From Escherichia phage JLBYU27: a stretch of DNA of 16,547 nt. The notes under the pieces are model-generated. The model searched no databases. It had not been told where the DNA came from and saw nothing but the letters and a program-made list of their open reading frames with translations. Both the position numbers and the translations under genes were made by a program. The DNA lies in the sequence record OK272475.1, one strand, 5' to 3'. Positions 803-15,452 of the stretch are shown here, piece after piece (positions within the stretch are counted from its first letter, which is position 1; every line of letters begins with the position of its first letter).

Positions 803-891
803 GCTATCCCCCTGGGATTGTGGCAAAGCGGGCCACCCGCTTGACTTCACGCCTTAATATTATCAGCGATAAAAATAATCGCAAAATTCGC

Positions 892-921
892 TTGCATTGC
901 GGATGTTGGTTGCATTATATT
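892..921 (+). promoter_or_regulatory. sigma70-like promoter for the plus-strand clamp-like gene
   Basis: -35 TTGCAT (892-897), 18 bp spacer, -10 TATATT (916-921); leader GGTTGCGCACCAACAACGAGGAA contains the RBS. The same -35/-10 hexamers and a near-identical leader recur on the minus strand at 10679-10735. Confidence 0.4.
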
Positions 922-950
922 GGTTGCGCACCAACAACGAGGAAATGACA

Positions 951-1463: not shown

Positions 1464-1468
1464 CTAAC

Positions 1469-1501
1469 GAAAAAGGGGCCATTACGGCCCCTTAATTATT
1501 T
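1469..1501. terminator. bidirectional rho-independent terminator between convergent genes
   Basis: Stem AAGGGGCC (1473-1480) / GGCCCCTT (1486-1493), loop ATTAC; A-run upstream and AATTATTT downstream on plus strand, so a U-tract follows the hairpin on either strand. Lies between the clamp-like gene stop (1463) and the Rz1-like gene stop (1482). Confidence 0.6.
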
Positions 1502-3019: not shown

Positions 3020-4523
3020 TGTCCGCTACCTCGTCCGGGTCTTCGTCGGTAGATTCTACCGCATCCGGGGACATTTGAGGCAATGGATTCTGATTTCGCA
3101 ATTCGTCTTCCACCTGCTCAACGGTTTGCGAGTCATCAATGACGCCCTGGGCCATCATCCACTTTATAAAGTCCGCCAGACGGACCGTACCGGTCTGCAC
3201 ACCAGCCATCATTGCGGTCATAAGCTGTGCGTCAACCGTGATTTCGGTGTAGAACTTATTCAGCGTTACACGTTGATCTGCGGTGTCGCCAGTGAACAGC
3301 TTGACGATTTGCAGCGCACGGTTGAAAGCCTTCTCAACGTTACCGGCAATCAGCGACAGGATACTGTTATCAGTCTGCGCATCGTAGGCCGCTTCAGTTG
3401 CCGTCTTAGGTGCGGTCCCCTTCTCGACCAGGGCAGCGCCCAGTTTAGCCATTTGCAACTCGCGTCGCTCACACAGCGCAACTGACAGGTTTCTCTCCTC
3501 CGCCTGAAGCAGTTTAGCGTCCATGTTCTGGCCCAGGATAACGCCCTTAGTTGCCCCGAGCGCGATGCCTCCCTTCAGGTTTTTATCAGCCCATGATTGG
3601 GTAAGACCGGTTGCAATGAGAGTAGGTTGACCCACGATGTGCGCAATCTCGGCGACGTCCGCTTCGGCGTTGTAGTGCTTAATGTTGATGGACGCAATAT
3701 CCGCCAGCGGTGCGGCGTCCGGTGTCGCGTTGTTGTCCACCGCGCCACACCAGCAAAATGGCAGTTGAGTAAGCGCATTACCGGCGGCATCCACCAGTGG
3801 CACAAGGTCGGTGCGGGTGAATCCCCGCGGCAAGTCCATTTGCACCTCGGACGTGTCCGCGTTGTAATACCAGCGGCGACCGTGTGCCACACCGTTAATC
3901 ATGCGAAGCTCGGTCCAGATTGTAACTTTGTGGTTTGCGAAGTCGTCCGGGTCTTCGGTGCTGATTTCGTCCGTTTCCTTCAGCACAATTAGCGTATCGA
4001 CGCCGTGGGTCTGCCGCCAGTTGATGATCTGTTCTGCCGTGTACAGGCGTATAAGCGGGCGGTGTGACGCCATTTCAGCGGCTGTCTGCGGCACTACGTT
4101 ACCCAGTTCATCAAAGTTAGCCTGGCGGTCGTAGTCCACCATAAAGCCAGCGCGGCCCGATTGCAGCACTTCCGACATAGCGCCGCGCAGGAGTTGCGCC
4201 AGTGGCATCCCGCTGCCGTCTACGTCATCAATCAGGTCAGCCATTGCCCCGGAAAGGTCCATACTCACCGGTTTGGCGAAGGCGACACCTAACAGTGCAT
4301 TCAGTGTGCGGGCGGTGGCGTTCAGGAAGACAGCACGTTGCTTATATGCCTTATAGCGCGCACGCGATTTCGGGTCAGTGGTGTCGCCGCTGGCTGGGTG
4401 TGGCAGGTACAAGGGGCCGCACGCCTTCACGGCGCGCTCCCCTGCTACACAATCACGGATCATTTTCCACTCTGGCGAGATGCGCGCATAGAGCGGGTGC
4501 TGGTTGTCAACGTTAACGGTCAT
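3003..4523 (-). CDS. phage portal protein (506 aa)
   Basis: ATG at 4523 with AAGGAA RBS 8 nt upstream. 506 aa with a strongly acidic C-terminal tail (DEDPDEVADNGEDN). Sits between terminase large subunit and head morphogenesis protein. Confidence 0.7.
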   Translation of the reverse strand: MTVNVDNQHPLYARISPEWKMIRDCVAGERAVKACGPLYLPHPASGDTTDPKSRARYKAYKQRAVFLNATARTLNALLGVAFAKPVSMDLSGAMADLIDDVDGSGMPLAQLLRGAMSEVLQSGRAGFMVDYDRQANFDELGNVVPQTAAEMASHRPLIRLYTAEQIINWRQTHGVDTLIVLKETDEISTEDPDDFANHKVTIWTELRMINGVAHGRRWYYNADTSEVQMDLPRGFTRTDLVPLVDAAGNALTQLPFCWCGAVDNNATPDAAPLADIASINIKHYNAEADVAEIAHIVGQPTLIATGLTQSWADKNLKGGIALGATKGVILGQNMDAKLLQAEERNLSVALCERRELQMAKLGAALVEKGTAPKTATEAAYDAQTDNSILSLIAGNVEKAFNRALQIVKLFTGDTADQRVTLNKFYTEITVDAQLMTAMMAGVQTGTVRLADFIKWMMAQGVIDDSQTVEQVEDELRNQNPLPQMSPDAVESTDEDPDEVADNGEDN

Positions 4524-4534
4524 GGTTGGTTTCC

Positions 4535-5920
4535 TTAGTAGAAGTCTACGGTTGGAACAACGGCGATCGGTCGAATCACAGGGAACAGGTGCGCAACAGG
4601 ATAGCCCGCGGCGTCGTTCATGTGGTCCACACCGGCAGTTTTATCCGGCTCGCCTTTCTTCAGGTCATAAACCTGCTGTTCCAGACATTTCGCTAGTGTA
4701 GGGCATTTATCCAGGTTGACAAAATACTGGCGCACGCCCTTCGAGTTGCACATCATCGTATTCATCGCGATCAATCGGTCTTTCACTGGCGGGTTAACGC
4801 TGTCATATTCCACATTGAAGCCAGCATCTTCCAGTTGCGCGATATCGGACGACGACGCGTTGACCGTTTTGCGGGATTTTCCGCTGCTATCCGGGTAAAC
4901 GACTACCCTACCGGCGGCACAATGTTCGGGATAGCGCTCCTCGATCGCCTCAATCATAGCCGGGGTGTCAAACAGGTCCACGAATTCATCCACGGCGTGA
5001 ATCTCGTCGCGGAACTCCTTGTTCTCGGTGGTACGCTGCCGTCTTACATACACGACCGCCGCCATTTTCGTGACGTTAAAGTCCATACCGATAATCAGCG
5101 TGTCGTCCGGCTGCACTTCTTCGGTGCTGGCGTTCTCCTCGCGATTAAACATCTTGTACACCGCGCCCGACGTAAGGTTAACAAACAGGCCGTTCAGGTA
5201 CGCATCAATCAGGTTAGCCGGGTACTGACTGCGAAGCGTGTCGATAAAGTCTGCTGGTAAATGGTGGTTGTCTGTGGTCTTCGCCCGGATCAAGCGTTTC
5301 TGGCTGTCCTTCTCCACCTCGAAAATTTGGTACATCGCCCGGTAGCCTTCAGGCGTTGACACGATGACGAACTGGCGGACGAAGCCCGCACGCAGACGAC
5401 CTAGCAGTTTGTGATATGCCGCCAGCGCGACGTCTTGTTTCGTGGTGTCGAACTCGTCGGCAACAATCCACGCGGCGTTGACCCCGATCAGGCGGGTATA
5501 GTTCTCCATTGATTCACAGATCACGCGGGTCCATTTGCCTTTCACCAGAACGCTATAGATCTTGTCCTGCTTGTTGAACTTCCACCGGAAGCCAGCCTCG
5601 TCGAAAGCCTTTTCCAATTCCGGATACATGATTTTAACCAGGAGTGGAATAGTCGGTTCGGTAACGATGCCGTCATGACCTGGGTTCAGTGTGAGAAGCT
5701 GGATTACCTTACGGGCTGCGACCCATGACTTGCCGCCGCCGAAGCCGGAGCACAGGCCGAGGATTTTAGTCTTCGTGTCCCGTAGTAGTTCGACCTGGTG
5801 CGGTAGGCAATCAGGCTGGTAAAGACGCACCGCCTGCGCAACGCGCGTAGGGCGTGGCGGTCGGTTGCGCTTTGCGATCGCGCGCTCCAGTGCGCGGTGT
5901 TCTGCCGCATAGTTACGCAT
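4535..5920 (-). CDS. terL: terminase large subunit (461 aa)
   Basis: Walker A-like LGLCSGFGGGKS and Walker B-like WIVADEFD in the N-terminal ATPase region; C-terminal nuclease-like region (LIIGMDFN ...). Start ATG at 5920 overlaps the terS stop (TAATG). Confidence 0.9.
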   Translation of the reverse strand: MRNYAAEHRALERAIAKRNRPPRPTRVAQAVRLYQPDCLPHQVELLRDTKTKILGLCSGFGGGKSWVAARKVIQLLTLNPGHDGIVTEPTIPLLVKIMYPELEKAFDEAGFRWKFNKQDKIYSVLVKGKWTRVICESMENYTRLIGVNAAWIVADEFDTTKQDVALAAYHKLLGRLRAGFVRQFVIVSTPEGYRAMYQIFEVEKDSQKRLIRAKTTDNHHLPADFIDTLRSQYPANLIDAYLNGLFVNLTSGAVYKMFNREENASTEEVQPDDTLIIGMDFNVTKMAAVVYVRRQRTTENKEFRDEIHAVDEFVDLFDTPAMIEAIEERYPEHCAAGRVVVYPDSSGKSRKTVNASSSDIAQLEDAGFNVEYDSVNPPVKDRLIAMNTMMCNSKGVRQYFVNLDKCPTLAKCLEQQVYDLKKGEPDKTAGVDHMNDAAGYPVAHLFPVIRPIAVVPTVDFY

Positions 5921-6492
5921 TAATCACCCTGACCTTTGCCGGTAGGTTCCACAACGACGTCGCCGTTATCATCTTCGTCGTCATCCAGCGGTACATCGTC
6001 GCGGACGCCGTGGTTTGCTTTAAGCAGGAATGTAGCGAAGCCTGCCGCGATGGTCACGCCGCCAGCTTCCATCAGGAAGGTTTTCTGCAGTTCCATAGCG
6101 TCCGCCATCGCCTCGGCGAACTCCTCATGTGCGCGCGCCCAGCGATACAGGCAAGCTACGCCCACACCGATTTCCGCGGCAAATCGTCCGAAGGTTGGCA
6201 TTTTGTTGCGAGGGATTACTTGCGCAGCGCCTTTATCGGAGTAGTTGACCTGCCAGGCGTCGGCGTCGGCAAAATAGCGGCGAAGCTGGTCGCAGTAAAC
6301 GGATCTGTAGTCAGTAGGGCGCCCACATTTGCCACCTTTACGGCGCTTGCCATACTCGATCTCGGGTCCAAGATTGGTGTGTTCTGTTTGCTCGCCTGGT
6401 TTACGGCGCGGGGTTACTGCTACTCGTCCGTCCAGTTTGGCGCGTCGGCCCTTAACTTTGATTTCTGCCATGATATAAGCCCTTTTGTTCAT
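5920..6492 (-). CDS. terS: terminase small subunit (about 190 aa)
   Basis: Translationally coupled to terL. Contains the HTH-like block TFGRFAAEIGVGVACLYRWARAHEEFAEAMADAMELQKTFL typical of small terminase subunits. Start taken as ATG 6492; ATG 6471 (AAGGG RBS) is an alternative; the ORF-track start at 6570 is a non-ATG codon and less likely. Confidence 0.7.
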   Translation of the reverse strand: MNKRAYIMAEIKVKGRRAKLDGRVAVTPRRKPGEQTEHTNLGPEIEYGKRRKGGKCGRPTDYRSVYCDQLRRYFADADAWQVNYSDKGAAQVIPRNKMPTFGRFAAEIGVGVACLYRWARAHEEFAEAMADAMELQKTFLMEAGGVTIAAGFATFLLKANHGVRDDVPLDDDEDDNGDVVVEPTGKGQGD

Positions 6493-6541
6493 ATGCGCCG
6501 ACCATCGGCAACATAGGAGACGGCCCTGCCATCTAATGGGG

Positions 6542-6575
6542 ATTATAACAGGCGCAAAAAAGCCCACCAAATCGG
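6542..6575 (-). promoter_or_regulatory. candidate promoter for terS overlapping the upstream terminator
   Basis: Perfect -10 TATAAT on minus strand (complement of 6542-6547), 17 bp spacer, weak -35 TTGGTG. Confidence 0.3.
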
Positions 6576-6580
6576 CAGGC
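6556..6580 (-). terminator. putative rho-independent terminator after the metallophosphoesterase gene
   Basis: On minus strand: GCCUGCC-GAUUU-GGUGGGC followed by UUUUUU (stem includes two G.U pairs). Lies 22 nt after the stop at 6602. Confidence 0.4.
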
Positions 6581-6601
6581 TGGGAGGATTACGGGTTGCC
6601 G

Positions 6602-7744
6602 TTACTTCAACATTTCCGGGCTAATGGTTAAGCGCGCTACTTCGCCGTAGTTGGCGCTATAGGTAATGACGTTGGCACTACGACCGGACATCCAACCACC
6701 GCGGCTGGCGTAGGCGTCTTTCGCTGCGAGGGTCCGGTGCTGTTCAACAATCATGTTACGGGATTCTACAATCTTCTGGTGGTGCAAGTGGCCTACGTGC
6801 GCGTAGCTGTACTCACTGGCCCCGAAAGCCTGTCTGAATTTAGAAATCATGACGGTTTCGATAGCGTCAAAGCGCGCTTTATGCCCGTGGTGGAAAAATA
6901 GCGTGGTCTTGCCGTGCTGCACCATTTTGTAGACGTCCGGGGACGTATCCACATCGACGCGCGGCTCGTTCTCGTACAGCGTGTTGAACATCTCAGCAAG
7001 CCAAATCATGCCCGACTCATCATGATTCCCCTGGACGATTAGCAGTTTGACTTTGTGGTGTTTTTGCAGGGCAAGTTCGACGACGTTGCGCACCATGCGA
7101 ATCATGTATCGGACCAGTTTCTGGTATCGGGTGTCCGCGTCCAGTATGTGACCACTTGCCGGAGTGACAGCATCGAGGCTATCAAAGTGGGCCATATCAC
7201 CGAGGATATTAATTACGGCAGTGCCTGCGTCCGGGGCGCGGGCGAAGGCTTCGACAAACCAGCGGTAGAACAGGTCTTCGGCTATCGCCATATCCCAGTC
7301 TTCGCCAGTCTCCTCGCCCCATGCCAACATGCCCAGGTGGAAGTCTGACACGGTGTACAGGTTGAGTAAGTCGAGCGCCTGGATCGGTACTGGCGGGGCG
7401 TTTACTGGCGCTGCCGGTGTGATTTCGCTGTTCATACCCTCGACAACAGCGCGCATAGCTTCGAGTTGGCGCTCCTTGTCCTGCTCAGTGATAACCCACG
7501 ACATGACCTCTTCGCCATTGCCGCGCACCAGGGCCGATACGCGCTTAACGCCGAAGCCATCGGCAACGCGCTGGCGGATTACGGCGTCGTTGCCGTGCCC
7601 AATTCCTTTTTTCGATAGGCGGGCTTTCCGCATGTAGACGTTTCGGAGGGACAAACCGTACTTCTTAGAAATCTCTTTCGATGTAGCGCCGGATTGTAAT
7701 TCAGCAATCAATTGCTCGTCTGTGATTTTAGTTTGCGGGTGCAT
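6602..7744 (-). CDS. HTH domain fused to a calcineurin-like metallophosphoesterase (380 aa)
   Basis: ATG at 7744 with AGGAAG RBS 6 nt upstream. N-terminal HTH-like segment (TSKEISKKYGLSLRNVYMRKARLSKKG). Metallophosphatase signature motifs in order: DFHLG, GDMAHF, GNHDE, HHGHK, GHLHH. Own promoter and flanking terminators. Confidence 0.75.
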   Translation of the reverse strand: MHPQTKITDEQLIAELQSGATSKEISKKYGLSLRNVYMRKARLSKKGIGHGNDAVIRQRVADGFGVKRVSALVRGNGEEVMSWVITEQDKERQLEAMRAVVEGMNSEITPAAPVNAPPVPIQALDLLNLYTVSDFHLGMLAWGEETGEDWDMAIAEDLFYRWFVEAFARAPDAGTAVINILGDMAHFDSLDAVTPASGHILDADTRYQKLVRYMIRMVRNVVELALQKHHKVKLLIVQGNHDESGMIWLAEMFNTLYENEPRVDVDTSPDVYKMVQHGKTTLFFHHGHKARFDAIETVMISKFRQAFGASEYSYAHVGHLHHQKIVESRNMIVEQHRTLAAKDAYASRGGWMSGRSANVITYSANYGEVARLTISPEMLK

Positions 7745-7769
7745 AATTACTTCCTGATTATGGGACCGG

Positions 7770-7805
7770 GGACAATATATCACGGGACTTATCGAGGCGG
7801 GCAAT
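7770..7805 (-). promoter_or_regulatory. extended -10 promoter-like element for the metallophosphoesterase gene
   Basis: Minus strand reads CGTGATATATT (TG-n-TATATT) flanked by GTCCCG / GTCCCCGG motifs; possible weak -35 TTGCCC 19 bp upstream. Confidence 0.35.
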
Positions 7806-7830
7806 AAAAAGCCCGGATAATACCGGGCTT
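7802..7830 (-). terminator. rho-independent terminator ending the lysis operon
   Basis: 8 bp stem AAGCCCGG / CCGGGCTT with 6 nt loop; on minus strand followed by TTTTTATT. Located 7 nt after the stop of the 55-aa ORF. Confidence 0.7.
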
Positions 7831-7836
7831 GATTGT

Positions 7837-8004
7837 TTACGCTGCAGGACCAGATTCTTCCTGCGGTGGTGGGCTTGGCAGCTTCGCATCGAAGACCCCA
7901 GCGTGGCTGATAGTGTCCGCGATGATAGCGCGTGCCCCAGGATCTTCGGTTTTAGCCAGTGCGGCAAGCGCGTCCGCATTATGATCAAGAATACTTTTCA
8001 ACAT
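7837..8004 (-). CDS. hypothetical small protein (55 aa) downstream of endolysin
   Basis: ATG at 8004 with GAGGGGA RBS about 7 nt upstream. No TM segment or lipobox, so not a spanin. The longer ORF-track form (to 8241) would overlap the endolysin gene and is not favoured. Confidence 0.4.
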   Translation of the reverse strand: MLKSILDHNADALAALAKTEDPGARAIIADTISHAGVFDAKLPSPPPQEESGPAA

Positions 8005-8020
8005 ATCGTGTCCCCTCGTA

Positions 8021-8512
8021 TTATGCTGCGTTACGACCGATTCGCTCGGCAACGTCCCACTGCTTACCGTCAAACAACGCCTGTCTGCCGATTGCACGAC
8101 GGACAAGCCCCTTAAGCACTGCCCCGCCTTGCTTGCGGAATTGTGGCAGTGTAGCCCGGACTTTTGCCCAGTCACCCAGGCGGACAGCATCGTCGAAGTC
8201 ACCGGCGACGTCGTCCGGCATGATCGGACCAGGGCCTGCATTGATGACCAGATCCACCAGCGCGTCGAATTGCGCTTGATTAATGCTCGGATGTGCGTAT
8301 TTGTTCACCCAGTCCTCGGCATACGCCACATCGCGCTTGAGCAGTGCCAGCGCTTCCTCGCGGGTAATGCTTCTAGGCGGATTAGTGCCAGTATGACCAT
8401 AACCCCAGGTGTACAGGCCGCGGGCCTGCTCTTTCTTGGTCGCGAAATATGGCACCGGGCTGAAAGCCTCCCAGGCTGCCGTAAATCGTAGACCGTTATC
8501 ACTGAATCGCAT
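8021..8512 (-). CDS. endolysin, phage lysozyme (163 aa)
   Basis: ATG at 8512. Lysozyme-like N-terminal block (LYTWGYGHTG) and C-terminal RRAIGRQALF resembling lambdoid phage lysozymes. Immediately follows holin-like genes. Confidence 0.8.
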   Translation of the reverse strand: MRFSDNGLRFTAAWEAFSPVPYFATKKEQARGLYTWGYGHTGTNPPRSITREEALALLKRDVAYAEDWVNKYAHPSINQAQFDALVDLVINAGPGPIMPDDVAGDFDDAVRLGDWAKVRATLPQFRKQGGAVLKGLVRRAIGRQALFDGKQWDVAERIGRNAA

Positions 8513-8744
8513 GTTTTACCCCATTCAAAACAGCATTACGCAGGGTGCGCAATGCAAACAGCCAGATTAACGCGGTCCAGGTGGTATCAGACACGTCTCC
8601 TGTTTGCAGCAACCCGATAAAACAGACCATTGCCGTTAACAGATACAGCACCCGACCGAAAATGCCATCCTGGACGGACGGCGCATACACGTTAAACAGG
8701 GACGAAGCCCCTATGATAACAAACAACAGGACGGAGATAATCAT
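8499..8744 (-). CDS. small membrane protein in lysis cassette (holin-like / antiholin candidate, 81 aa)
   Basis: ATG at 8744 overlaps the holin stop (ATGA); 2-3 predicted hydrophobic helices; overlaps the endolysin start by 14 nt. Confidence 0.5.
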   Translation of the reverse strand: MIISVLLFVIIGASSLFNVYAPSVQDGIFGRVLYLLTAMVCFIGLLQTGDVSDTTWTALIWLFALRTLRNAVLNGVKHAIQ

Positions 8745-9031
8745 TTTGCACCCCCCGGAAGTCGGAACGACGCAATAGTCCCCCGGATCCGGTCGGCGAT
8801 TGGCATCCAGAAGATGGCAGTTACGAAGCCCAAACCGGCGACAGTGCGCTCGCCAGACAAACCAGACCACTCGGCGATAGCTGGCGCACCAAATATGGCA
8901 CACAGGAAGCCAACCACGATATATAAAACGAAGTTCAACGGCCCTTTCGTTGCCTCGCCATGAATGCGTGCGCCTACGAAGCCACCAGCAAGACACGCAA
9001 TGGCGAATAACCACTCGTTTAGCTTATCCAT
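8741..9031 (-). CDS. holin (96 aa, three hydrophobic segments)
   Basis: ATG at 9031. Three hydrophobic stretches (WLFAIACLAGGFVGA, FVLYIVVGFLCAIFGAPAIA, GLGFVTAIFWMPIA) and a charged C-terminus. First gene of the holin / endolysin cluster. Confidence 0.7.
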   Translation of the reverse strand: MDKLNEWLFAIACLAGGFVGARIHGEATKGPLNFVLYIVVGFLCAIFGAPAIAEWSGLSGERTVAGLGFVTAIFWMPIADRIRGTIASFRLPGGAK

Positions 9032-9083
9032 AAAAAAGTCCCAGTAAGTTTTAGCTCACTGGGACTATATCACGCTTGCATAA
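9032..9083 (-). promoter_or_regulatory. terminator-like hairpin with embedded extended -10 element immediately upstream of holin
   Basis: Perfect 9 bp inverted repeat AGTCCCAGT (9037-9045) / ACTGGGACT (9058-9066) with 12 nt loop; on minus strand followed by TTTTTT then the holin ATG. Minus strand also reads TTATGCAAGCGTGATATAGT (TG-n-TATAGT) overlapping the upstream arm. Confidence 0.45.
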
Positions 9084-9371
9084 TTAATCGAAAATGGACC
9101 ACTTGCCGACGTCTTTCCACGCCCACCCGGATGATCGGACGGCTTCGAATGTTCGACCGCCTATCATATCCCGATACCACAGCCACCACATGCGCAACCT
9201 GGTCGGGTGCTCCGTGATTCCACGGCGCTTGTAGATCTCGAACGTCATGCGGGTAATGCTGGCGGCTTCCACAGCAGGCCATACTACGAACATCAGGACA
9301 CCCAACAGCACCGCGGTAAGCAGACACAGCCCGCAGATCAAACCAAACCAATATATCAAATCGTGTAGCAT
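9084..9371 (-). CDS. hypothetical membrane protein (95 aa, one N-terminal TM segment)
   Basis: ATG at 9371 with GGAAGGGG RBS 8 nt upstream. Hydrophobic N-terminus (IYWFGLICGLCLLTAVLLGVLMFVVW) then a Trp/Arg-rich soluble part. Confidence 0.5.
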   Translation of the reverse strand: MLHDLIYWFGLICGLCLLTAVLLGVLMFVVWPAVEAASITRMTFEIYKRRGITEHPTRLRMWWLWYRDMIGGRTFEAVRSSGWAWKDVGKWSIFD

Positions 9372-9492
9372 CGTATTGCCCCTTCCGGTTTGCCAATATG
9401 GCGCGCCCATGCACGCGCCACGAAGTAATTGCGAAATACCCGACCGCCTATCTCGAAGCGGTTATGCTGAAGCATATCACGGATCGTCGCAC

Positions 9493-9966
9493 TCATTTCA
9501 GAATCACCGAGCGCGGGTCGATGGCTTTCATGCTGCCGTCACGTTCGACCCGGATGAATCCGACGCCGTATTCCTGCGCATGGCGCTGTGCGTTTGTCAC
9601 GGCATCCGCTATGGCGCTCGATCGCTCATGCGGCTGGCGATCCCGAAGGCTGTATTTGCGACCCACTCGCTCGTAATTTACGAGGCCGAAGTAAGTCATA
9701 CCGGCGACGCCATCCTTGCGGGATTGCATACGCAGGCCATGAAGCCCGACATATTCAACGATCCACATACTACCGTCGCGAATATCACGCAGCACATCGC
9801 CGCGCGCAATATCGTGGGTCAGTACGTCAAAGTTTTCATACAGCCCGTCTTTCTTCGCCCACCAAACCCGACTGCCTGCTGCGTTTTGCAGGCGGACGTA
9901 GGAATCCAGGGTCTGTATTGGCGTAAGGATGCACCCGTCATGCTTGCGGCGGAATAGTAATTTCAT
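9493..9966 (-). CDS. hypothetical protein (157 aa), unassigned; candidate late regulator
   Basis: ATG at 9966 with GAGGAGA RBS; start overlaps the stop of the upstream small ORF (ATGA). No motif I can assign. Confidence 0.55.
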   Translation of the reverse strand: MKLLFRRKHDGCILTPIQTLDSYVRLQNAAGSRVWWAKKDGLYENFDVLTHDIARGDVLRDIRDGSMWIVEYVGLHGLRMQSRKDGVAGMTYFGLVNYERVGRKYSLRDRQPHERSSAIADAVTNAQRHAQEYGVGFIRVERDGSMKAIDPRSVILK

Positions 9967-10097
9967 TGCTCTGTCTCCTCGATCTCTTCGATAGTCTTCG
10001 TGTCGCCATCGCATACCGTAGCGATGCCGTTTTGTTTGTAGTCAAGTTCGCACATATGCAGGTAGATAAACTCCTGCGAGAATCCGCCTATCAACAT
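9963..10097 (-). CDS. hypothetical small protein (44 aa), uncertain
   Basis: ATG at 10097 with GGAGA about 9 nt upstream; coupled to the downstream gene. The same frame extends upstream to a GTG at 10268, overlapping the 90-aa ORF in a different frame. Confidence 0.3.
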   Translation of the reverse strand: MLIGGFSQEFIYLHMCELDYKQNGIATVCDGDTKTIEEIEETEQ

Positions 10098-10363
10098 CTG
10101 CTCAGTCTCCAGTGTTTGCCCACCCGCTCGACTGCGGGCTTTCGGCGTAATGTAATACGTATTCCCATTGGTAGCAAGGAAGTCCGCACCCTGAAATCGT
10201 GTTGTGCTGCGAACTGGCGCAAGTAGCGGGTCTGCGTTAATGGCTTCACATCGTCGCGATAGCGCCACAGCACAGAATCGCCCTCAATCGCATTCTTAGC
10301 CCATATTCGTATGCAATGCAGGGTAATGCGCCACGAAAGCTGTTTCGCGCGTCTGCGGTCCAT
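10091..10363 (-). CDS. hypothetical basic protein (90 aa)
   Basis: ATG at 10363 with AAGGGG RBS 6 nt upstream, 10 nt after the stop of the 101-aa gene. Arg/Lys/Trp-rich. Confidence 0.45.
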   Translation of the reverse strand: MDRRRAKQLSWRITLHCIRIWAKNAIEGDSVLWRYRDDVKPLTQTRYLRQFAAQHDFRVRTSLLPMGIRITLRRKPAVERVGKHWRLSRC

Positions 10364-10372
10364 TTTGGCCCC

Positions 10373-10678
10373 TTATTTCGCAAGCTGGGCGAATAGTTCG
10401 CGCTGGGCTTTAATCCGGGCGACGTTTGCCACTGCCGTCTCGCCAATACTGAAGAGATATGCCAGGCGCTCACGGGAGAATGCTTTGGCGTATTCGTGAA
10501 TCGCCACACGCAACGGCTTCAGTTCGTCCAGGCTGGCGTCCATGCGGTAGAGCGCATCCCTAATTGATTGGTGCGCCAGAATAGCAATCTGAAGCGCGGC
10601 GTCTACGCTGCCGTTAAGTGCCTTCGCTTCGTCCAGCTTTGCCACGGCCAGGGTGTAATTCCAGATTAGTGCTTTCAT
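10373..10678 (-). CDS. hypothetical helical protein (101 aa), first gene of the operon upstream of the lysis genes
   Basis: ATG at 10678 with AGAGGA RBS 7 nt upstream, directly downstream of the sigma70-like promoter at 10707-10735. Confidence 0.55.
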   Translation of the reverse strand: MKALIWNYTLAVAKLDEAKALNGSVDAALQIAILAHQSIRDALYRMDASLDELKPLRVAIHEYAKAFSRERLAYLFSIGETAVANVARIKAQRELFAQLAK

Positions 10679-10699
10679 CGTTCAGTCCTCTTGTTGGTG

Positions 10700-10740
10700 T
10701 GCAACCAATATAGCAGTGTGCCAGGCAGGATGCAACCAAT
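10700..10740 (-). promoter_or_regulatory. sigma70-like promoter with extended -10, flanked by two ATATTGGTTGCA direct repeats
   Basis: Minus strand: -35 TTGCAT (10735..10730), 17 bp spacer, TGcTATATT (10715..10707). The 10-mer ATATTGGTTGCA occurs twice (complement of 10701-10712 and 10731-10742). Leader is near-identical to that of the clamp-like gene. Confidence 0.45.
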
Positions 10741-10945
10741 ATTAATCACGCGTATGAAAAAGTTGATCGCTATCTGCTGAAACTGCAAACTGCATTTTTC
10801 ACTTTCCATTCTGCATCGCGCATTGGTTGCCGAGTTCATCGCCGACCGCAATTTGCATCATGTTGCCGTGGATTATGCAATCCCGGATTTTATGCAGTCT
10901 CAGACGAGGGGGGTGACAGACCCCCCGTCTAGTCTGAAAGACTGG

Positions 10946-11210
10946 GGTGCTGTCCCGCTGTCCCGATCGGCTAAACCCCGCGGCAGCACTGGCGGGGACA
11001 GGGTGCTGTCCCGCTTTGTCCCGCCCCTGGTCTGTCCCGCTTTTTGTCCCGCTTAGTTTATGCACGAAAACAGAATAGATATTCACATTTTGGGGGTGGG
11101 ACAGATCGGGACAGCACCCCTGTCCCGTTTTTAATTTATGCAATGTTGGTGGGTAAATATGCAGTTTTTAGAGGTGCGGGATAGAACGGGACAAAACGGG
11201 ACGTCCCGCC
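10946..11210. repeat. iteron-like array of at least 12 copies of TGTCCCGC / GCGGGACA in both orientations
   Basis: Forward copies at about 10951, 10959, 11007, 11017, 11033, 11045, 11121; inverted copies at about 10993, 11097, 11106, 11176, 11186; a perfect 12 bp palindrome CGGGACGTCCCG at 11197-11208. Longer unit GGTGCTGTCCCGC recurs three times. Interspersed AT-rich TTTATGCA motifs. One hairpin CGGGACAG-caccc-CTGTCCCG is followed by TTTTT. Confidence 0.8.
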
Positions 11211-11222
11211 TGTACCGCTTCG

Positions 11223-11547
11223 TTATGCGGGGTTCTGCCGCGCCATTTCATCCAGCGCAACGCGTTCCATTAGCTTGATATCTTTAAACGCACGTTGCGC
11301 GTTTTCGATGCCGTGCATCTTAAATAGCCATTCCAGTACGCCGTAGTCGATGCCGTATGCGCCGCCGAATCCGGTACGCCATTGCGTGGCGCAATCGGTG
11401 AAGACTGCGACTATCTTCGCATTGTCGGGCCATATTGCAACAGGCGGACAAACATCTTCGGGGGCCGCACCCCATAAACTTGCGGCTAAATCTTCGGAGG
11501 GTGGCGGCGGGCCATAAAAGCGTCGCGCCGCCTCAATTAGTTTTTTT
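11223..11547 (-). CDS. -1 frameshift extension of the tail assembly chaperone (GT-like T domain, about 107 codons)
   Basis: A7 slippery run (plus-strand T7 at 11541-11547) lies immediately before the G-gene stop; by hand translation the -1 frame stays open from there to a TAA at 11225..11223 (KKLIEAARRFYGPPPPSEDLAASLWGAAPEDV ... KLMERVALDEMARQNPA). Confidence 0.5.
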
Positions 11548-11899
11548 CACGCAGGCCCATCAGTTCGAGATAGTACGACGTGTGGAACACACCGAACGCG
11601 CGAGGGTAGTTAACCACCAGGCGGCGGACGTTCTCCGCGTTAAATTCATCTGGCAGATTCCAGCCTTCAGCGACGTGCATGATGGCCTCGACCATAACGT
11701 TAAAGCCTTCCGGGTCGTTGTCGTCGTATTCCGACAGCTTGCGCTCCGTGTCCTGCATGGTCTGCGAAAATTCGTCGATCGGGCGGTGGCGTACGGTAAA
11801 CGTCATTTTGCCTGGTTCGTTCTCACCAGGGCGCGGGATCTCAATCGGCAGCTTAAAGGTAGGCTTAGGGTCAAGTGTAAAGAGTGGTGCTTTAGCCAT
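11537..11899 (-). CDS. tail assembly chaperone (lambda G-like, 120 aa)
   Basis: ATG at 11899 with GGAG RBS; acidic small protein immediately downstream of the major tail gene; ends ...GLREKN with the A7 slippery site in the last codons. Confidence 0.6.
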   Translation of the reverse strand: MAKAPLFTLDPKPTFKLPIEIPRPGENEPGKMTFTVRHRPIDEFSQTMQDTERKLSEYDDNDPEGFNVMVEAIMHVAEGWNLPDEFNAENVRRLVVNYPRAFGVFHTSYYLELMGLREKN

Positions 11900-11913
11900 T
11901 GTAGTATTCTCCA

Positions 11914-11938
11914 ATAAAAAAGGGGCCGTGCTGGCCCC
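11914..11938 (-). terminator. rho-independent terminator after the major tail gene
   Basis: Stem GGGGCC / GGCCCC with loop of 5 nt; on minus strand followed by TTTTTTATT. Sits between the major tail stop and the chaperone RBS. Confidence 0.65.
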
Positions 11939-11968
11939 ATATTATCACCCGCTATTTAAGCGACCAAA

Positions 11969-12694
11969 TCAAGACAGCGCCTCGACCAAGTCCTTACGGT
12001 AAATAACCATATCGGACTGCATGGTCAGCGTGGACTCCACCGTCTCCACGTTGTTTACTTCAGACGATGGGATCTTCCGGAAAGACACCTTAGCCGGGTA
12101 AATGCGGATCTCACCTTTGCCGCTTGCCGCTGCCGGGTTAGTGAACTTAATCACAGTGGTTTTCTGTGTGTCGTCCAGGTCTTCCAGAATCGGGCGGATC
12201 GGGTCTTCTTCGTCGTGGGTGAAGGTGTAAGTCTGGACCAACGGGTTTTTCGTGGTGTTCAGACTGATCGCGGTATTCACCTGCAACGGCTGGAAGGTAG
12301 TAGTCTGCTGGTCGCCACCAGACACGGCGACGTTAGTGATATACGGGAAGTCGACAAAGCTCGACACCTTCACCACCTCACCCGGTGTTCCTGTGCTGAA
12401 AGCGCCGGTAGGGTATTTGGTTACGTCTTTAGTATCGAAGCGCGCCAGTGTAACGTCGTTAGTCGCCACTTTACCCACGATGAACGCGCGGTTCAGCGCA
12501 CGGACCCACGGGGTTTTAGTGAACATAACCACGTCACCAACTTTCAGGCCATGAGAAGCCGCGCAGGTGATAACGCAACCTTTCGTAAGACCAGAGATCG
12601 ACGCGGCGGCGTTGGTAGCTGCCGTAACGGCGATACCTTCGCTTAATACGGACCCAATCTGCACGCTGGATCCATTCGGTAACTGGTAGCCCAA
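11969..12694 (-). CDS. major tail protein (lambda V-position, 241 aa)
   Basis: TTG start at 12694 preceded by AGGAGG with 5 nt spacing; an in-frame stop lies just upstream so no ATG alternative exists. Ser/Thr/Val-rich protein followed by a terminator and the G/GT chaperone pair. Confidence 0.6.
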   Translation of the reverse strand: MGYQLPNGSSVQIGSVLSEGIAVTAATNAAASISGLTKGCVITCAASHGLKVGDVVMFTKTPWVRALNRAFIVGKVATNDVTLARFDTKDVTKYPTGAFSTGTPGEVVKVSSFVDFPYITNVAVSGGDQQTTTFQPLQVNTAISLNTTKNPLVQTYTFTHDEEDPIRPILEDLDDTQKTTVIKFTNPAAASGKGEIRIYPAKVSFRKIPSSEVNNVETVESTLTMQSDMVIYRKDLVEALS

Positions 12695-12749
12695 AATATC
12701 CTCCTAAATCAATAGATTACAGTATTTGCAGCCTGAGACATTTCAGGTC

Positions 12750-12778
12750 TTGACTAATCATACCACCAACGGTACTAT
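12750..12778 (+). promoter_or_regulatory. sigma70-like promoter for the plus-strand HNH-like gene
   Basis: -35 TTGACT (12750-12755), 17 bp spacer, -10 TACTAT (12773-12778); GGAG RBS at 12801 and ATG at 12810. Confidence 0.4.
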
Positions 12779-12809
12779 CCACAAAAATCGTTAATCAACT
12801 GGAGCGGAT

Positions 12810-13403
12810 ATGCGTAAAGGCATTCTTTTCGAAGGCATGACATTTAGAGGCGTTACTTTGTTGCGTAAAGGGCCAGGCCTTAAGTGGTTCTGTTCTTGCC
12901 CCGTATGCGGAAGCGAGACACTTCGCACTAACGGCGCACTATTGGATTTTATGCGAGGCGAAACACTGCGCTGGGTATGTACTTGTTTCGGCAAGAAATC
13001 TCGACACGGAATGACGGGGACGCCAACAATGATTACATGGGAAGGTATGATTCAGCGATGCCACAACCCCAATGCGACTAAATACGAAATATATGGCGGT
13101 CGAGGGATTACGGTGTGTGACCGCTGGCGAGTATTCAAGAACTTCCTGGAAGATATGGGCTTGCGGCCCGCCGGAGCAACCCTTGATAGAATCGACAGTA
13201 ACGGCAACTATGAGCCAGGTAATTGCCGGTGGGCATCCCAAAAAGACCAAACCGAAAACACTCGTAGGATTGTCCGAGTTATATATGAGGGGCGTGAATA
13301 TTGTCTTAAGGAAGCGTGCAAGGCGGCGGGCGTGAATTATGACACTATTAGAAAGAAATGGAAAAAAAGCGGGGAAATGTTCCACCGCTTTGAGATGATT
13401 TAA
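12810..13403 (+). CDS. HNH/AP2-family homing-endonuclease-like DNA-binding protein with N-terminal Cys-rich zinc-ribbon-like segment (197 aa)
   Basis: Contains the W..M..RC.NPN...Y..YGGRGI.VCDRW..F..F..DMG ... LDRID..GNYEP.NCRWA motif block that I recall from phage HNH/AP2-type homing endonuclease-like proteins; N-terminal CSCPVCG ... CTCFG. Opposite strand to the flanking tail genes; its stop overlaps the stop of the convergent U-like gene (TTAA). Confidence 0.55.
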   Translation: MRKGILFEGMTFRGVTLLRKGPGLKWFCSCPVCGSETLRTNGALLDFMRGETLRWVCTCFGKKSRHGMTGTPTMITWEGMIQRCHNPNATKYEIYGGRGITVCDRWRVFKNFLEDMGLRPAGATLDRIDSNGNYEPGNCRWASQKDQTENTRRIVRVIYEGREYCLKEACKAAGVNYDTIRKKWKKSGEMFHRFEMI

Positions 13404-13822
13404 GCGCAACAGGTGTAGGGGACTGTAACCACGATGCGGGCGCGATCAACGTCCTCAACCACTGAACTGGTGTATGGCGCGTCCTGAAGCTGGAATGCAG
13501 CGCCGGAAATCTTTACCGTCAACCACTTATCCGACGTAGCGATGGCGTCCGCCAGTTCGCTCGCGTACTGTGTACCCGTGCCTGCAGGGAACACCACGGC
13601 AACCTGATATACGCCTGCATAGATTCTCCCCTTTTGCTGGAGGCCCACAAACTGGGTCGGGGCCGGTAGCAGGTACGGCTCCAGGTAGACACCACTCCCG
13701 TTTGCGTGGTCCCCTTGCACGTTCTCCCAGTTAACCTTGATCGGCCGCGGGCTTGTGCTTAGGCTCGCCGATAACTCTTCTACCACGCTGTTAAGCGCTT
13801 TGCGGATTGCGGTATTGCTCAT
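13400..13822 (-). CDS. putative tail terminator / tail completion protein (lambda U-position, 140 aa)
   Basis: ATG at 13822 overlapping the upstream stop (TAATG); size and position immediately upstream of the major tail gene. Assignment by synteny only. Confidence 0.4.
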   Translation of the reverse strand: MSNTAIRKALNSVVEELSASLSTSPRPIKVNWENVQGDHANGSGVYLEPYLLPAPTQFVGLQQKGRIYAGVYQVAVVFPAGTGTQYASELADAIATSDKWLTVKISGAAFQLQDAPYTSSVVEDVDRARIVVTVPYTCCA

Positions 13823-14415
13823 TATTTCACCTTCGAATTAATTTCTGCCGCTACGACGCGAACAATCCCCGCGGGCGCTTGTTTACTCCAGCCATACTCA
13901 AGTCGCTGCGCGTATGGCACGTTGTTAGTAAACCAGATCGACCCGTATTCACTGGAATCGTAATGCGCCAGCACTTCACGCCCTGCGGCTAATGTTGCCG
14001 TTCCGGCCTTATCCACGCGGTCAATAGCGCCAACAGCCGGGCGGTCGAACGTAACCTGCCAGTTTCCCCGGAAGCGTCCGCCGGTGTAATTCTTCGCAGC
14101 CCAGCCACGCTGGCGGAACGTGACGTTGCCGTTTTTAGTCTTGAATGATACCAGCACGCTGGCGTGCTTTTTCTGCCCGCGCTTCAGTTTGCCACCATTC
14201 TTGCGACGCTGCGCGGCGTTCACCTTGTTCGCGTGCTGGCGGGCCAGCGCGTAAGCCCTGTTAATTTTCCACCGGCGAGGGTCGCCCACCGGGGAGATCT
14301 CAATAAGGCGTCCGAGTATTTGCATACCGTACGCCCGCACCGCCTTGTCGTTGTTCTCCTTCGTCTTATCCACCCACGTTGCAATAGTGGCGGCGAATGA
14401 GTAGACCTCAGCCAC
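13822..14415 (-). CDS. putative tail completion / head-tail component (lambda Z-position, 197 aa)
   Basis: GTG start at 14415 with AAGGGG RBS 6 nt upstream. Basic protein (RRKNGGKLKRGQKK). Assignment by size and synteny. Confidence 0.4.
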   Translation of the reverse strand: MAEVYSFAATIATWVDKTKENNDKAVRAYGMQILGRLIEISPVGDPRRWKINRAYALARQHANKVNAAQRRKNGGKLKRGQKKHASVLVSFKTKNGNVTFRQRGWAAKNYTGGRFRGNWQVTFDRPAVGAIDRVDKAGTATLAAGREVLAHYDSSEYGSIWFTNNVPYAQRLEYGWSKQAPAGIVRVVAAEINSKVK

Positions 14416-14416
14416 G

Positions 14417-14770
14417 TTAACCCCTTAGCTGTAGTTGAAACAGCATGGTTGTTCCAGCCGGTTGCAGTGGGTTTGGATTGATGACCCTGTAGTCTATATT
14501 GTTCAGGCTAACCAAATCCCCGACCTGCACCGGCTTTACTGCCTGGCACAAAAACTTCACATCCCCGGCAACGATACGCGTCCCGTCGATCTCGCTTGGC
14601 TTGTACTCCTCGCGAAGTCCGATGACGTCAAACGAGGTCGGAGGGATGACAACTTCGTCGCCGTCTACGCGGTCGACTGCACCAGGACGCGTCACCGTAG
14701 CCGTCATTCCGAACTTTTTAATCAGCGGATTGACTTTCCGCTTCAAGCCAGCGTAATTAAAGCCCGCCAT
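14417..14770 (-). CDS. putative head-tail joining protein (lambda FII-position, 117 aa)
   Basis: ATG at 14770 with AGGAGG 6 nt upstream; same length as lambda FII (117 aa) and similar overall architecture. Assignment by size and synteny. Confidence 0.45.
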   Translation of the reverse strand: MAGFNYAGLKRKVNPLIKKFGMTATVTRPGAVDRVDGDEVVIPPTSFDVIGLREEYKPSEIDGTRIVAGDVKFLCQAVKPVQVGDLVSLNNIDYRVINPNPLQPAGTTMLFQLQLRG

Positions 14771-14891
14771 TATCATCCTCCTGTACCGGTGGTTCCGGTT
14801 CTGGCGCTGGTTCCGGTTCTGGCGCTGGTTCCGGTTCTGGTTGGCGTTTAGTATTTGCGGCGATAATAGCCGCCAGTAATGCAGGATTCAT
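14757..14891 (-). CDS. small Pro/Glu-repeat protein (44 aa) encoded over an 18-bp tandem repeat
   Basis: ATG at 14891 with GGGGGTGA RBS; MNPALLAAIIAANTKRQ followed by PEPEPAPEPEPAPEPEPP. Coding status uncertain. Confidence 0.35.
   Translation of the reverse strand: MNPALLAAIIAANTKRQPEPEPAPEPEPAPEPEPPVQEDDNGGL
14786..14848. repeat. tandem repeat, about 2.8 copies of an 18-bp unit GGTTCCGGTTCTGGCGCT
   Basis: Read directly at 14791-14843; the unit is itself built from three related hexamers; encodes (PEPEPA)n on the minus strand. Confidence 0.8.
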
Positions 14892-14892
14892 A

Positions 14893-15393
14893 TCACCCCC
14901 GGAATACGTCAAAATTACCCGCTGCGTTGCCGTCTGCGTCAATCCAGTGTCCCAGCAAGCCATCCCACCACGGGAACGAAACACCGCTACCAATCGTCGC
15001 AGGGTCATATTCCATCGTGATCGGGCCTACCGTTTCGCGGATAGTCTCCTTTCCATCGCCGATCGGAGAAATATCAACATCGTCAGCCACCAGCATTGCC
15101 AGCCGGTAAACGGCTTGTTCAACGGCAACGGGGATTGATGCGAAGTCTACAATCTGCCCAGCAGGTACTACTGCCAAATCTTCAGTAAGCGTGTTCAGTA
15201 CCGGCTTACCGTCTGATGGGTAGTTGATGCGGGGCCATGCGTCAATTCCGGTCGGGTCCGCCGGTTCGCCGATCCAGGCGATGCCGTTGAGGAAATCATT
15301 AACTATGGTAAGGTGTCGCGTTGCATCGCCCTGCGTAATTTCAACGCCTCGCGCCGCGGCATAAACAACGAAGGTTTGCGGGTCGCCATACAT
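14893..15393 (-). CDS. putative head completion / head-tail connector protein (lambda FI-position, 166 aa)
   Basis: ATG at 15393 with AGGAG RBS 8 nt upstream; first gene after the capsid-gene terminator. Function by position only. Confidence 0.4.
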   Translation of the reverse strand: MYGDPQTFVVYAAARGVEITQGDATRHLTIVNDFLNGIAWIGEPADPTGIDAWPRINYPSDGKPVLNTLTEDLAVVPAGQIVDFASIPVAVEQAVYRLAMLVADDVDISPIGDGKETIRETVGPITMEYDPATIGSGVSFPWWDGLLGHWIDADGNAAGNFDVFRG

Positions 15394-15407
15394 TTTATTT
15401 GCTCCTA

Positions 15408-15435
15408 TAAAAAAAGGCGGGCTTATGCCCGCCCC
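15408..15435 (-). terminator. rho-independent terminator after the putative major capsid gene
   Basis: Stem GGCGGGC / GCCCGCC with loop TTAT; on minus strand followed by TTTTTTT. 18 nt after the stop at 15453. Confidence 0.7.
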
Positions 15436-15452
15436 TTTGGGATTTGCGCCGA

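Follow-up and report, generated by a model that had tools for sequence, protein, structure and literature searches.

A conserved six-gene operon of small hypothetical proteins upstream of the lysis genes in Dhillonvirus phages

In the Q/pR'/tR' late-gene switch of phage lambda, a strong intrinsic terminator stands before the lysis cassette, small genes are found on its immediate upstream side, and the packaging and structural genes follow the cassette on the same strand. The locus of phage JLBYU27 studied here, with six small genes (g1 to g6), resembles it in this layout; however, no homology to any Q family was found in g1-g6, the putative terminator abuts the holin start codon whereas that of lambda lies within a short leader transcript, and no counterpart of the lambda Q-binding element was identified. 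Homologues of the C-terminal module of g4 (phrog_27442) and of g6 (phrog_2531) are also found near the lysis genes in a small-gene cluster of Jerseyvirus (Guernseyvirinae), for example S4_00055 and S4_00048 of S4lw. In that cluster, the module related to g4 forms a 64-aa protein by itself, no counterparts of the other four genes are present, and the whole lies downstream of the lysis genes whereas the Dhillonvirus block lies upstream. The closest systems are those of Sodalis phage SO-1 and EK99P-1 (gp50-gp53), SSL-2009a (orf55-60) and KarlBarth (bas17_0054-0059), which encode the same proteins in the same gene order and at the same position between helicase-primase and holin; the upstream neighbour in JLBYU27 differs only because its record was closed through a repeat.

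The window, that is, the whole stretch of DNA analysed, is 16,547 nt long. We found that positions 9084-10678 on its minus strand are a six-gene operon belonging to the core genome of Dhillonvirus, the virulent E. coli siphophages of the HK578 / SSL-2009a / SO-1 group. The first-pass annotation had listed reading frames of 101, 90, 44, 157 and 95 aa, all of which are present on the minus strand, and it had rightly described a single co-directional unit that codes for small uncharacterised proteins and is flanked by a promoter and the lysis genes; its count of four to five proteins has to be raised to six, since the 46-aa g5 had been overlooked. The genes are as follows.

10373..10678, minus strand: g1, 101 aa, predicted soluble four-helix bundle protein
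10091..10363, minus strand: g2, 90 aa, very basic (pI 11.6)
9963..10097, minus strand: g3, 44 aa, acidic (pI 4.1)
9493..9966, minus strand: g4, 157 aa, basic (pI 9.7)
9356..9496, minus strand: g5, 46 aa, basic (pI 10.8)
9084..9371, minus strand: g6, 95 aa, single-pass membrane protein

The six genes follow one another closely, with translational coupling from g2 to g6. The g3 ATG overlaps the g2 stop by 7 nt (ATGTTGA), the g3 stop overlaps the g4 ATG by 4 nt (ATGA), the g5 ATG overlaps the g4 stop by 4 nt (ATGA), and the 3' end of g5 overlaps g6 by 16 nt. Direct reading also revealed a Shine-Dalgarno-like sequence before each of the six genes. In complete genomes, the helicase-primase gene precedes the block, and the holin-holin-endolysin genes follow it directly.

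The 16.5-kb JLBYU27 record corresponds to one segment of a Dhillonvirus genome of ~44 kb, namely the stretch bounded by two 176-bp direct repeats, and it has been closed on itself.

10890..11064, no strand assigned: junction, the single copy of the 176-bp repeat that closes the segment, outside the operon

In phage B2, the repeat is present as two direct copies that are 86% identical (20490-20664 and 37287-37461); positions 1-11064 of the window align to B2 25489-37460, and positions 10890-16547 align to B2 20490-25488. Many public contigs with these genes are likewise 16.1-17.5 kb long, and one of them begins inside a GTCCCG array. The junction that had been placed upstream of the operon is thus a closure through the repeat and not a natural feature of the genome. 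Since the record is an inter-repeat segment and not a complete phage genome, inferences from gene context at the junction are unsafe in practice.

A gene-by-gene check showed that all six genes are intact, each in its own frame, in 9/9 relatives. The mean pairwise dN/dS was 0.45, 0.16, 0.20, 0.25, 0.08 and 0.18 for g1 to g6, respectively, and 0.07 for the holin gene, so all six genes are under purifying selection (0.08-0.45). The intact frames, the dN/dS values and the Shine-Dalgarno-like sequences together argue that g1-g6 are more than chance reading frames. Furthermore, about 150 of the 156 Dhillonvirus records contained the block in intact form, and every gene matched a PHROG family of unknown function with full-length coverage and E values of 1e-25 to 3e-83 (in the order g1 to g6, phrog_9839, 12533, 15977, 10243 plus 27442, 13628 and 2531). 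All the proteins thus fall into ordinary conserved phage families with their frames intact in relatives, which is the very outcome that the first-pass annotation had said would refute it, and the block is an ordinary conserved set already known as hypothetical genes, not unusual cargo. As it stands, it matters little, being made up of known, well-sampled conserved hypothetical genes. In searches of Pfam, NCBIfam and PADLOC, no match of g1-g6 at E <= 1 came anywhere near a curated cut-off, which bears out the earlier remark that these proteins carry no assignable motif. Comparing profiles of g1, g2, g4 and g6 with the sequences of the whole PDB gave nothing below E 0.1, no Rfam gathering score was reached in positions 8600-11600, and no tRNAs were found. 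We also considered a 44-aa reading frame that overlaps the putative promoter (g0, 10809..10675) as a seventh gene and rejected it: its dN/dS was 0.65 with low dS, its start codon is lost in 2/9 relatives, and its stop is shifted in 3/9. This frame is annotated in B2, StarDew and SM_A2/A8.

Upstream of g1, we identified the following element.

10700..10742, minus strand: putative operon promoter, with two copies of ATATTGGTTGCA at 10742..10731 and 10711..10700

It consists of a -35-like TTGCAT (10735..10730), a 17-nt spacer and a -10 TATATT (10712..10707), and a palindrome, TTGGT-N5-ACCAA, overlaps the expected transcription start. Both ATATTGGTTGCA copies are kept in 9/12 relatives, while the spacer sequence varies. 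Phage B2 has 16 occurrences of ATTGGTTGC, where 0.43 would be expected, and most of them precede genes and point along the direction of transcription. By its sequence, this is a conserved early-type promoter, separate from the junction, and we infer promoter activity before g1. A generic consensus promoter scan listed neither this promoter nor the holin-proximal one proposed below; the operon promoter was not listed because its -35 matches at only 3/6 positions. The literature searched contained no Dhillonvirus transcriptomics or promoter mapping. The ATATTGGTTGCA motif also precedes replication, gam and moron-like genes of these phages.

At the other end of the operon, a second element separates g6 from the holin gene.

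9029..9073, minus strand: putative g6-holin element, with an extended -10-like GTGATATAGT, a hairpin, a T-run and the holin ATG

GTGATATAGT occupies 9073..9064, the 12-bp hairpin 9066..9037 and the T-run 9036..9032, and the holin ATG (9031..9029) follows directly. This is the strongest terminator-like site in the window, with a 12-bp stem, a 6-nt loop and then T5-6, and the hairpin folds as RNA at -29 kcal/mol (z -3.6). As a G+C-rich stem-loop with an immediate U-run, it has the form of an intrinsic (Rho-independent) terminator. The element is essentially invariant in 11 relatives, differing in one loop base and in T-run length only, and the stem, being invariant, offers no covariation to tell an RNA structure from a DNA palindrome. 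More terminator-like hairpins are found in the same-strand late region (7830..7809, 6581..6561, 11938..11922 and 1493..1473). The only promoter-like feature beside the holin-proximal terminator is the extended -10-like TGATATAGT, and an extended -10-like TGnTAnnnT stands beside terminator hairpins at three late-region sites. In B2, the TG and the hexamer of this pattern are kept and the n position is changed; a shared GTGATAWWDT was therefore rejected as a late-promoter signature, since the exact pattern is not conserved in B2 whereas the looser TGnTAnnnT is.

We consider it somewhat probable overall, from these sequence features, that the block is an operon of early genes, insulated from those for lysis. 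That g1-g6 are early or middle genes, read from a sigma-70-type promoter and stopping at the holin-abutting hairpin, appears about evenly balanced; an early or middle assignment would follow from their sharing the promoter motif with the replication, gam and moron-like genes. In such a scheme, unmodified host RNA polymerase would read the operon from the promoter with the two ATATTGGTTGCA motifs, and transcription would stop at the invariant 12-bp hairpin and T-run abutting the holin start, which would keep the lysis and packaging genes silent early. Late holin expression could then arise by initiation at TGATATAGT or by factor-dependent read-through. Transcripts that started at TGATATAGT would begin inside the 5' arm of the hairpin and would thereby escape termination and leave the holin ribosome site free. 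If this regulatory reading is true, it would show how lysis and packaging are timed in common virulent coliphages that have no recognisable RNA polymerase or Q-type antiterminator gene.

As for the products, we tentatively suggest that they are small binding proteins acting on host or phage machinery and not enzymes, with g4 as the best candidate for RNA polymerase binding and g6 at the inner membrane. The model of g1 is a confident, plain up-down four-helix bundle, whose central part is variable and whose C-terminal helical hairpin is conserved; a helix-turn-helix, suspected at first, turned out to be absent from this model. Rop-like and other small four-helix bundles, including that of phage Aqs1, are alike in generic fold only, and the modelled likeness would justify no inference of function. 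The best conserved member is g5 (phrog_13628, E 6e-38; dN/dS 0.08), which was full length in 151/151 matching phage records, with an identity of >=90% in all except 5. In g6 (phrog_2531, E 2.6e-35), one hydrophobic span (residues ~6-31, hydropathy maximum at residues 12-30) is followed by a C-terminal domain of about 60 aa that is conserved and rich in Trp and Arg. Homologues of g6 that are about 40% identical and share this architecture were found in more than 300 Jerseyvirus (Salmonella) records, where they sit in the small-gene cluster between endolysin and terminase. The recurrence of g6 and of the g4 C-terminal module as separate genes near the Jerseyvirus lysis cassette provides a supporting small-gene context. 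No activity could be assigned to g1, g2, g3 or g5. The TTGGT-N5-ACCAA palindrome, the AGTCCCAGT inverted repeat and the TGTCCCG arrays might be considered as possible DNA targets of the basic g2 and g5.

Small, non-enzymatic, genus-restricted orphans of this kind could instead be a host-takeover or anti-defence set, in which six independent inhibitors are grouped only by shared early expression. Other small Dhillonvirus proteins do interact with defence systems, namely Ksap1, a trigger of Avs2 (PMC11564622), and anti-Tmn (PMC11846954); however, both are encoded elsewhere in the genome and neither is a member of g1-g6. In addition, the set is found in essentially every genome and is not variable, and the near invariance of g2, g5 and g6 throughout the genus fits conserved partners better than an arms race. 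We therefore regard such a set as unlikely.

The first-pass annotation had noted that this position normally holds Q-like late regulators, and a third reading is a Q-like antitermination cassette in which one product, most plausibly g4, would drive RNA polymerase through the holin-proximal and further late terminators, as lambda Q does at tR'. The location of the block, with a strong terminator and the lysis genes following at once, would suit such a cassette, as would the further terminator-like hairpins in the co-directional late region and two features of g4. The first is its modelled fold. The protein is predicted to contain two tandem small beta-barrels (residues 3-51 and 57-103), which model as five-stranded barrels of the Tudor/SH3-like class, followed by a linker, a helix (112-133) and a hairpin-helix C-terminal module. 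Its best fold matches were RNA-polymerase-binding Tudor domains, those of PcrA/UvrD (PDB 5dma, 7egs and 7egt) and CarD (4l5g), which share 9-17% sequence identity with g4; g4 differs from these proteins in having two barrels plus an unrelated C-terminal module, and no PcrA/UvrD-type or CarD/TRCF RID-type match was found by Pfam in g4 or 40 g4 homologues. The fold evidence is generic, and we take this predicted likeness as a structure lead only. The second feature is a weakly omega-like helix in the g4 family, which matched residues 4-32 of E. coli RNA polymerase omega at E 0.5 in the PDB profile search. In relatives, g4 is 174-210 aa long, apart from a few shorter copies; the JLBYU27 protein has lost about 20-48 aa through an in-frame internal deletion, and the omega-like stretch lies partly in the deleted segment. 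We kept the omega similarity as a weak lead only, because Pfam gave no RNA_pol_Rpb6 match in the 40 homologues and half of the segment is missing from the JLBYU27 protein. A BFVD fold search with g4 returned its own family only, with other matches at TM-scores of 0.2-0.3, and the exact JLBYU27 g4 protein was not found in the contig index.

Several observations argue against the Q-like cassette. The six proteins and the 40 g4 homologues gave no antiterminator family match in Pfam or NCBIfam, which leaves the earlier suggestion of a Q-like late regulator without sequence support there, and the Cys4 zinc motif is absent. Moreover, 1.6 kb separates the promoter from the terminator downstream of it, whereas the two adjoin in lambda pR'-tR'. 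The fold evidence for g4 is the generic one described above, and the extended -10-like elements by three terminators offer a simpler route to late expression. We judge this reading to be quite improbable. It is very doubtful, on the models, that g4 would be a new kind of phage RNA-polymerase-binding factor that governs the early-to-late switch at the holin-abutting element, possibly together with g2 and g5. That proposal draws on the tandem Tudor-like barrels, the C-terminal module shared with Jerseyvirus, and the helix in full-length relatives that resembles the N-terminus of omega.

Toxin-antitoxin or defence cargo, which had also been raised for this slot, would find its best candidates in the acidic g3 as antitoxin with the basic g4 or g2 as toxin, since g3 is coupled to g4 and preceded by g2. 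However, no PADLOC, Pfam or NCBIfam match to a known toxin, antitoxin or defence protein was found, and the genes belong to the core of a genus of virulent phages (about 150/156 records) and are not patchy accessory cargo. A MazF fold match of g4 extends over about half a domain, and many unrelated barrels rank above it. Such cargo is thus highly improbable.

The second frame that overlaps most of g2 is a GTG open reading frame (10268..9963) of 101 open codons, of which only the last 44 are the gene, g3. A single gene across 9963-10363, broken by a frameshift or joined by programmed frameshifting, might be read from this long open frame, but it is already refuted by the sequences of the relatives, since in all nine of them g2 ends at its own stop and g3 lies in a different frame with its own start, g2 gives a single uninterrupted, full-length match in 153/156 phage records, each gene is under purifying selection in its own frame, and direct reading found no slippery heptamer before the g2 stop. 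The open stretch upstream of the g3 start ranges from 10 to 65 codons among relatives, and because its length is not conserved it reads as chance. Of the two possibilities first raised for these frames, the disrupted gene can therefore be dropped, and the pair of coupled genes is upheld: the odd-looking overlap is ordinary translational coupling of g2 and g3. Consistent with this, g3 has its own family (phrog_15977, E 1.2e-25), and the annotations of KarlBarth, SSL-2009a, B2 and Haito list it as a gene in its own right, of 44-50 aa.

The g2 protein (phrog_12533, E 6e-53) has a mean column identity of 93%. A search against 1.84 billion representative proteins returned its own family plus one outside match only, a 1634-aa multi-GAF protein whose score was produced by five to seven repeats of one short segment and which we judged to be a chance hit; g2 is thus a highly conserved orphan that is restricted to the genus. 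Although it is among the best conserved genes of the block, g2 is often left without annotation or is mis-annotated in public Dhillonvirus records, a gap of practical consequence for those who use them.

Six small minus-strand genes (g1 to g6) lie just upstream of the holin gene. Five of them had been listed in a first-pass annotation of this DNA, which overlooked g5.

Genes of the g1–g6 block
10678..10373, minus strand: g1, 101 aa, phrog_9839, dN/dS 0.45
10363..10091, minus strand: g2, 90 aa, phrog_12533, dN/dS 0.16
10097..9963, minus strand: g3, 44 aa, phrog_15977, dN/dS 0.20
9966..9493, minus strand: g4, 157 aa, phrog_10243 and phrog_27442, dN/dS 0.25
9496..9356, minus strand: g5, 46 aa, phrog_13628, dN/dS 0.08
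9371..9084, minus strand: g6, 95 aa, phrog_2531, dN/dS 0.18

All six genes were intact, each in its own frame, in nine relatives, and their dN/dS values can be compared with 0.07 for the holin gene. Direct reading of the window showed a Shine–Dalgarno-like sequence at every start, a 9-nt gap between g1 and g2, a 7-nt overlap (ATGTTGA) between g2 and g3, ATGA at both g3/g4 and g4/g5, and a 16-nt overlap between g5 and g6. The exact g4 protein is annotated in NCBI as JLBYU27_16. Some relatives have a 44-aa ORF (g0) annotated across the promoter, which was rejected as non-coding on its dN/dS of 0.65 at low dS; several relatives have also lost either its start or its stop codon.

The frame overlapping g2 had been read either as one of two coupled genes or as part of a single gene disrupted by a frameshift, and only the first reading stood. 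In KarlBarth, SSL-2009a, GeorgBuechner and Haito, g2 (89 aa) and g3 (44–50 aa) are annotated separately with an ATGA overlap. The frameshift was refuted, since no relative examined has a fused g2–g3 ORF, no slippery site is present at g2/g3, and tblastn matched g2 at full length and without interruption in 153 of 156 records. The open frame at 10268..9963 (GTG start, 101 codons) consists of g3 and, ahead of it, a stretch that is open by chance; among relatives, the open stretch upstream of the g3 start varied from 10 to 65 codons. The annotations of B2 and EK99P-1 truncate g2, those of bob and jat leave it uncalled, that of StarDew has a long g3-frame ORF in its place, and the Logan gene caller omits it.

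As had been claimed, the small proteins carry no assignable motif: Pfam, NCBIfam and PADLOC gave no credible match at E ≤ 1 for any of g1–g6. The hits of g6 to DUF4006 (E 0.28, 11.5 bits vs a cut-off of 22) and of g1 to TIGR00641 (E 0.081, 11.2 bits vs a cut-off of 303.8) were far below threshold, and profile searches of PDB sequences found nothing below E 0.1. Each of the six belongs instead to a function-unassigned PHROG, matched along its full length. In homologue searches, g1 (101 clusters), g4 (433 clusters) and g6 (40 clusters) found Dhillonvirus-like proteins only. A full HMMER pass of g2 against 1.84 billion representatives returned its own family and one multi-GAF match, judged spurious because it was repeat-inflated. 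g2 and g5 are very basic (pI 11.6 and 10.8) and g3 is acidic (pI 4.1). The suggestion of toxin–antitoxin or defence cargo failed on every sequence criterion tested; two small Dhillonvirus proteins whose known roles relate to defence, Ksap1 (PMC11564622) and anti-Tmn (PMC11846954), lie elsewhere in the genome and not in this block. The first-pass annotation had itself named conserved phage families with frames intact in relatives as the outcome that would tell against its reading, and this is what we found. The g1–g6 block is genuine yet unremarkable: a conserved set of genes whose sequence families, without assigned function, were already on record.

Homologues of g6, ~40% identical and of the same architecture (an N-terminal membrane span, WPxVEAxSxTRM and a Trp/Arg-rich domain ending in GVGKW), occur in >300 Jerseyvirus records. 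In addition, the C-terminal module of g4 (residues 120–157) has a Jerseyvirus homologue that exists as a protein by itself (64 aa, phrog_27442), and both homologues lie within a small-gene cluster in the Jerseyvirus endolysin–terminase interval. At the site of the g6 homologue, Salmonella phage SE2 has an annotated opposite-strand ORF, gp27. S4lw labels the g6 homologue "NinH protein" and the g4 C-terminal homologue "lysozyme"; PHROGs support neither label.

In the g4 model (pLDDT 78.8), two small beta-barrels in tandem are followed by a linker predicted with low confidence, then by a long helix and finally by a hairpin-helix module. The best fold matches were RNA-polymerase-binding Tudor domains, with Spt5 KOW and RapA below them and unrelated SH3-like barrels close behind (PsaE 6.4, FeoA 6.0, MazF 5.9); the resemblance of the predicted fold is a lead, not a test. 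The window g4 (9493–9966) is without 20–48 residues found in >90% of relatives, including a conserved I-x-N-R-F helix start. The break falls between two short DAV repeats, so this loss is probably a natural in-frame deletion. In full-length relatives, the I-x-N-R-F helix and the next segment (profile positions 138–166 of the g4-family alignment) align with residues 4–32 of E. coli RNA polymerase omega at E 0.5 against PDB sequences. About 12 of 29 residues, counted by eye between consensus and omega, are identical (I-x-NRFD-x-V...A-x-R-x-A...VG). Pfam gives no support for an omega-like helix, and at this E-value the similarity by itself is not significant. Within the block, an RNA-polymerase-directed factor would most plausibly be g4, a role we consider unlikely.

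By megablast, ~156–162 phage records matched the region or the whole window at 85–92% identity, nearly all of them Dhillonvirus, E. coli siphophages such as HK578, SSL-2009a, B2, EK99P-1 and the BASEL phages Bas14–18. Window 1–11064 aligned to 25489–37460, and window 10890–16547 to 20490–25488, of the complete B2 genome (44,283 bp), in which a 176-bp sequence is present as two direct copies (20490–20664 and 37287–37461, 86% identical). Judged from these alignment blocks and the two repeat copies, the window is the ~16.9-kb part of a ~44-kb Dhillonvirus genome that lies between the repeats, self-closed through one repeat copy:

10890–11064 (together with the window ends, 1/16547): single 176-bp repeat copy closing the segment, from the B2 alignment

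Because of this closure through one direct-repeat copy, the NCBI record JLBYU27 (16,547 bp) is in all likelihood an incomplete assembly that was wrongly circularised. Among public contigs (Logan, ENA) with g1–g6-type genes, many span 16.1–17.5 kb and are broken at this point too, and a 16,329-bp Logan contig starts within the GTCCCG array of the repeat. Thus, the junction most likely originates from assembly and not biology, and the repeat is evidently a break point for assemblers. In complete genomes, the helicase-primase gene lies upstream of g1–g6. The core of the repeat consists of dense TGTCCCG/CGGGACA arrays in both orientations (10 vs 2.3 expected at window 10940–11205; in B2, 13 in 20549–20810 and 6 in 37346–37441), which look like iterons or putative sites for a DNA-binding protein. 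A G/C-rich hairpin, GACGAGGGGGG-N7-CCCCCCGTC, stands at the start of the repeat (10903–10932) and is shared by the two B2 copies; no T-run accompanies it on either strand.

Upstream of g1, two ATATTGGTTGCA copies 31 bp apart give TTGCAT-17 nt-TATATT, and a TTGGT-N5-ACCAA palindrome includes the second copy. Both copies are kept in 9 of 12 relatives, with varying spacer sequence; the other three have different sequence there, and in two of these (jat and GeorgBuechner) a longer open frame runs into g1. In B2, ATTGGTTGC occurs 16 times vs 0.43 expected (37-fold over-represented), mostly upstream of genes and oriented with transcription, in front of the replication module, gam, helicase and opposite-strand moron-like genes. 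ATTGGTTGC(A) is often in tandem, supplying −35 and −10 hexamers and the palindrome, and is probably an early-promoter/operator signature of Dhillonviruses. Given the enrichment in front of such genes, we read the g1 promoter as early-type and separate from the junction, 150 bp off, where a promoter had been placed.

10700–10742 and 919: ATTGGTTGC(A) motif sites in the window

The 50-nt spacer between g6 and holin is essentially invariant in 11 relatives, while the flanking genes differ by 5–25%. Its terminator-like hairpin (12-bp stem with T5–6, −29 kcal/mol, z −3.6) is stronger than any other in the window. The holin ATG directly follows the T-run, so the holin ribosome-binding site (GGGA) falls within the 3′ arm of the stem. 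An extended −10-like element, TGATATAGT, is immediately 5′ of the stem and overlaps it. TGnTAnnnT with a hairpin is also found on the minus strand at 7774–7830, before the phosphoesterase gene, and at 11922–11948, between the major tail protein and chaperone genes, both within the same-strand late region; the B2 counterparts keep the TG and hexamer with the n position changed. Related to the repeat arrays are GTCCC half-sites at two places: within the holin hairpin, as the AGTCCCAGT inverted repeat, and surrounding the −10-like element at 7774–7790.

One possibility is that the hairpin terminators block read-through from upstream, and that the overlapping promoters start transcripts inside the hairpin, which would escape termination. 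The alternative is factor-dependent read-through, proposed earlier with a Q-like regulator in this slot. The layout is similar to lambda Q-pR′-tR′-S in gene order only, and no gene of the block qualified as a Q-type antiterminator on any sequence criterion tested; the literature searched yielded no Dhillonvirus transcript data. In the model we favour, g1–g6 would form an operon expressed early or in the middle phase and encoding six small binding proteins, with a strong terminator insulating the lysis genes, a regulatory architecture to which we give an even chance. Downstream of the endolysin gene (window 7837–8004, minus strand, and relatives), spanin genes are neither annotated nor evident. 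This slot encodes a 55-aa protein in the window and B2, and a ~135-aa Big_2/Ig-like protein in KarlBarth, SSL-2009a and the relative L015.
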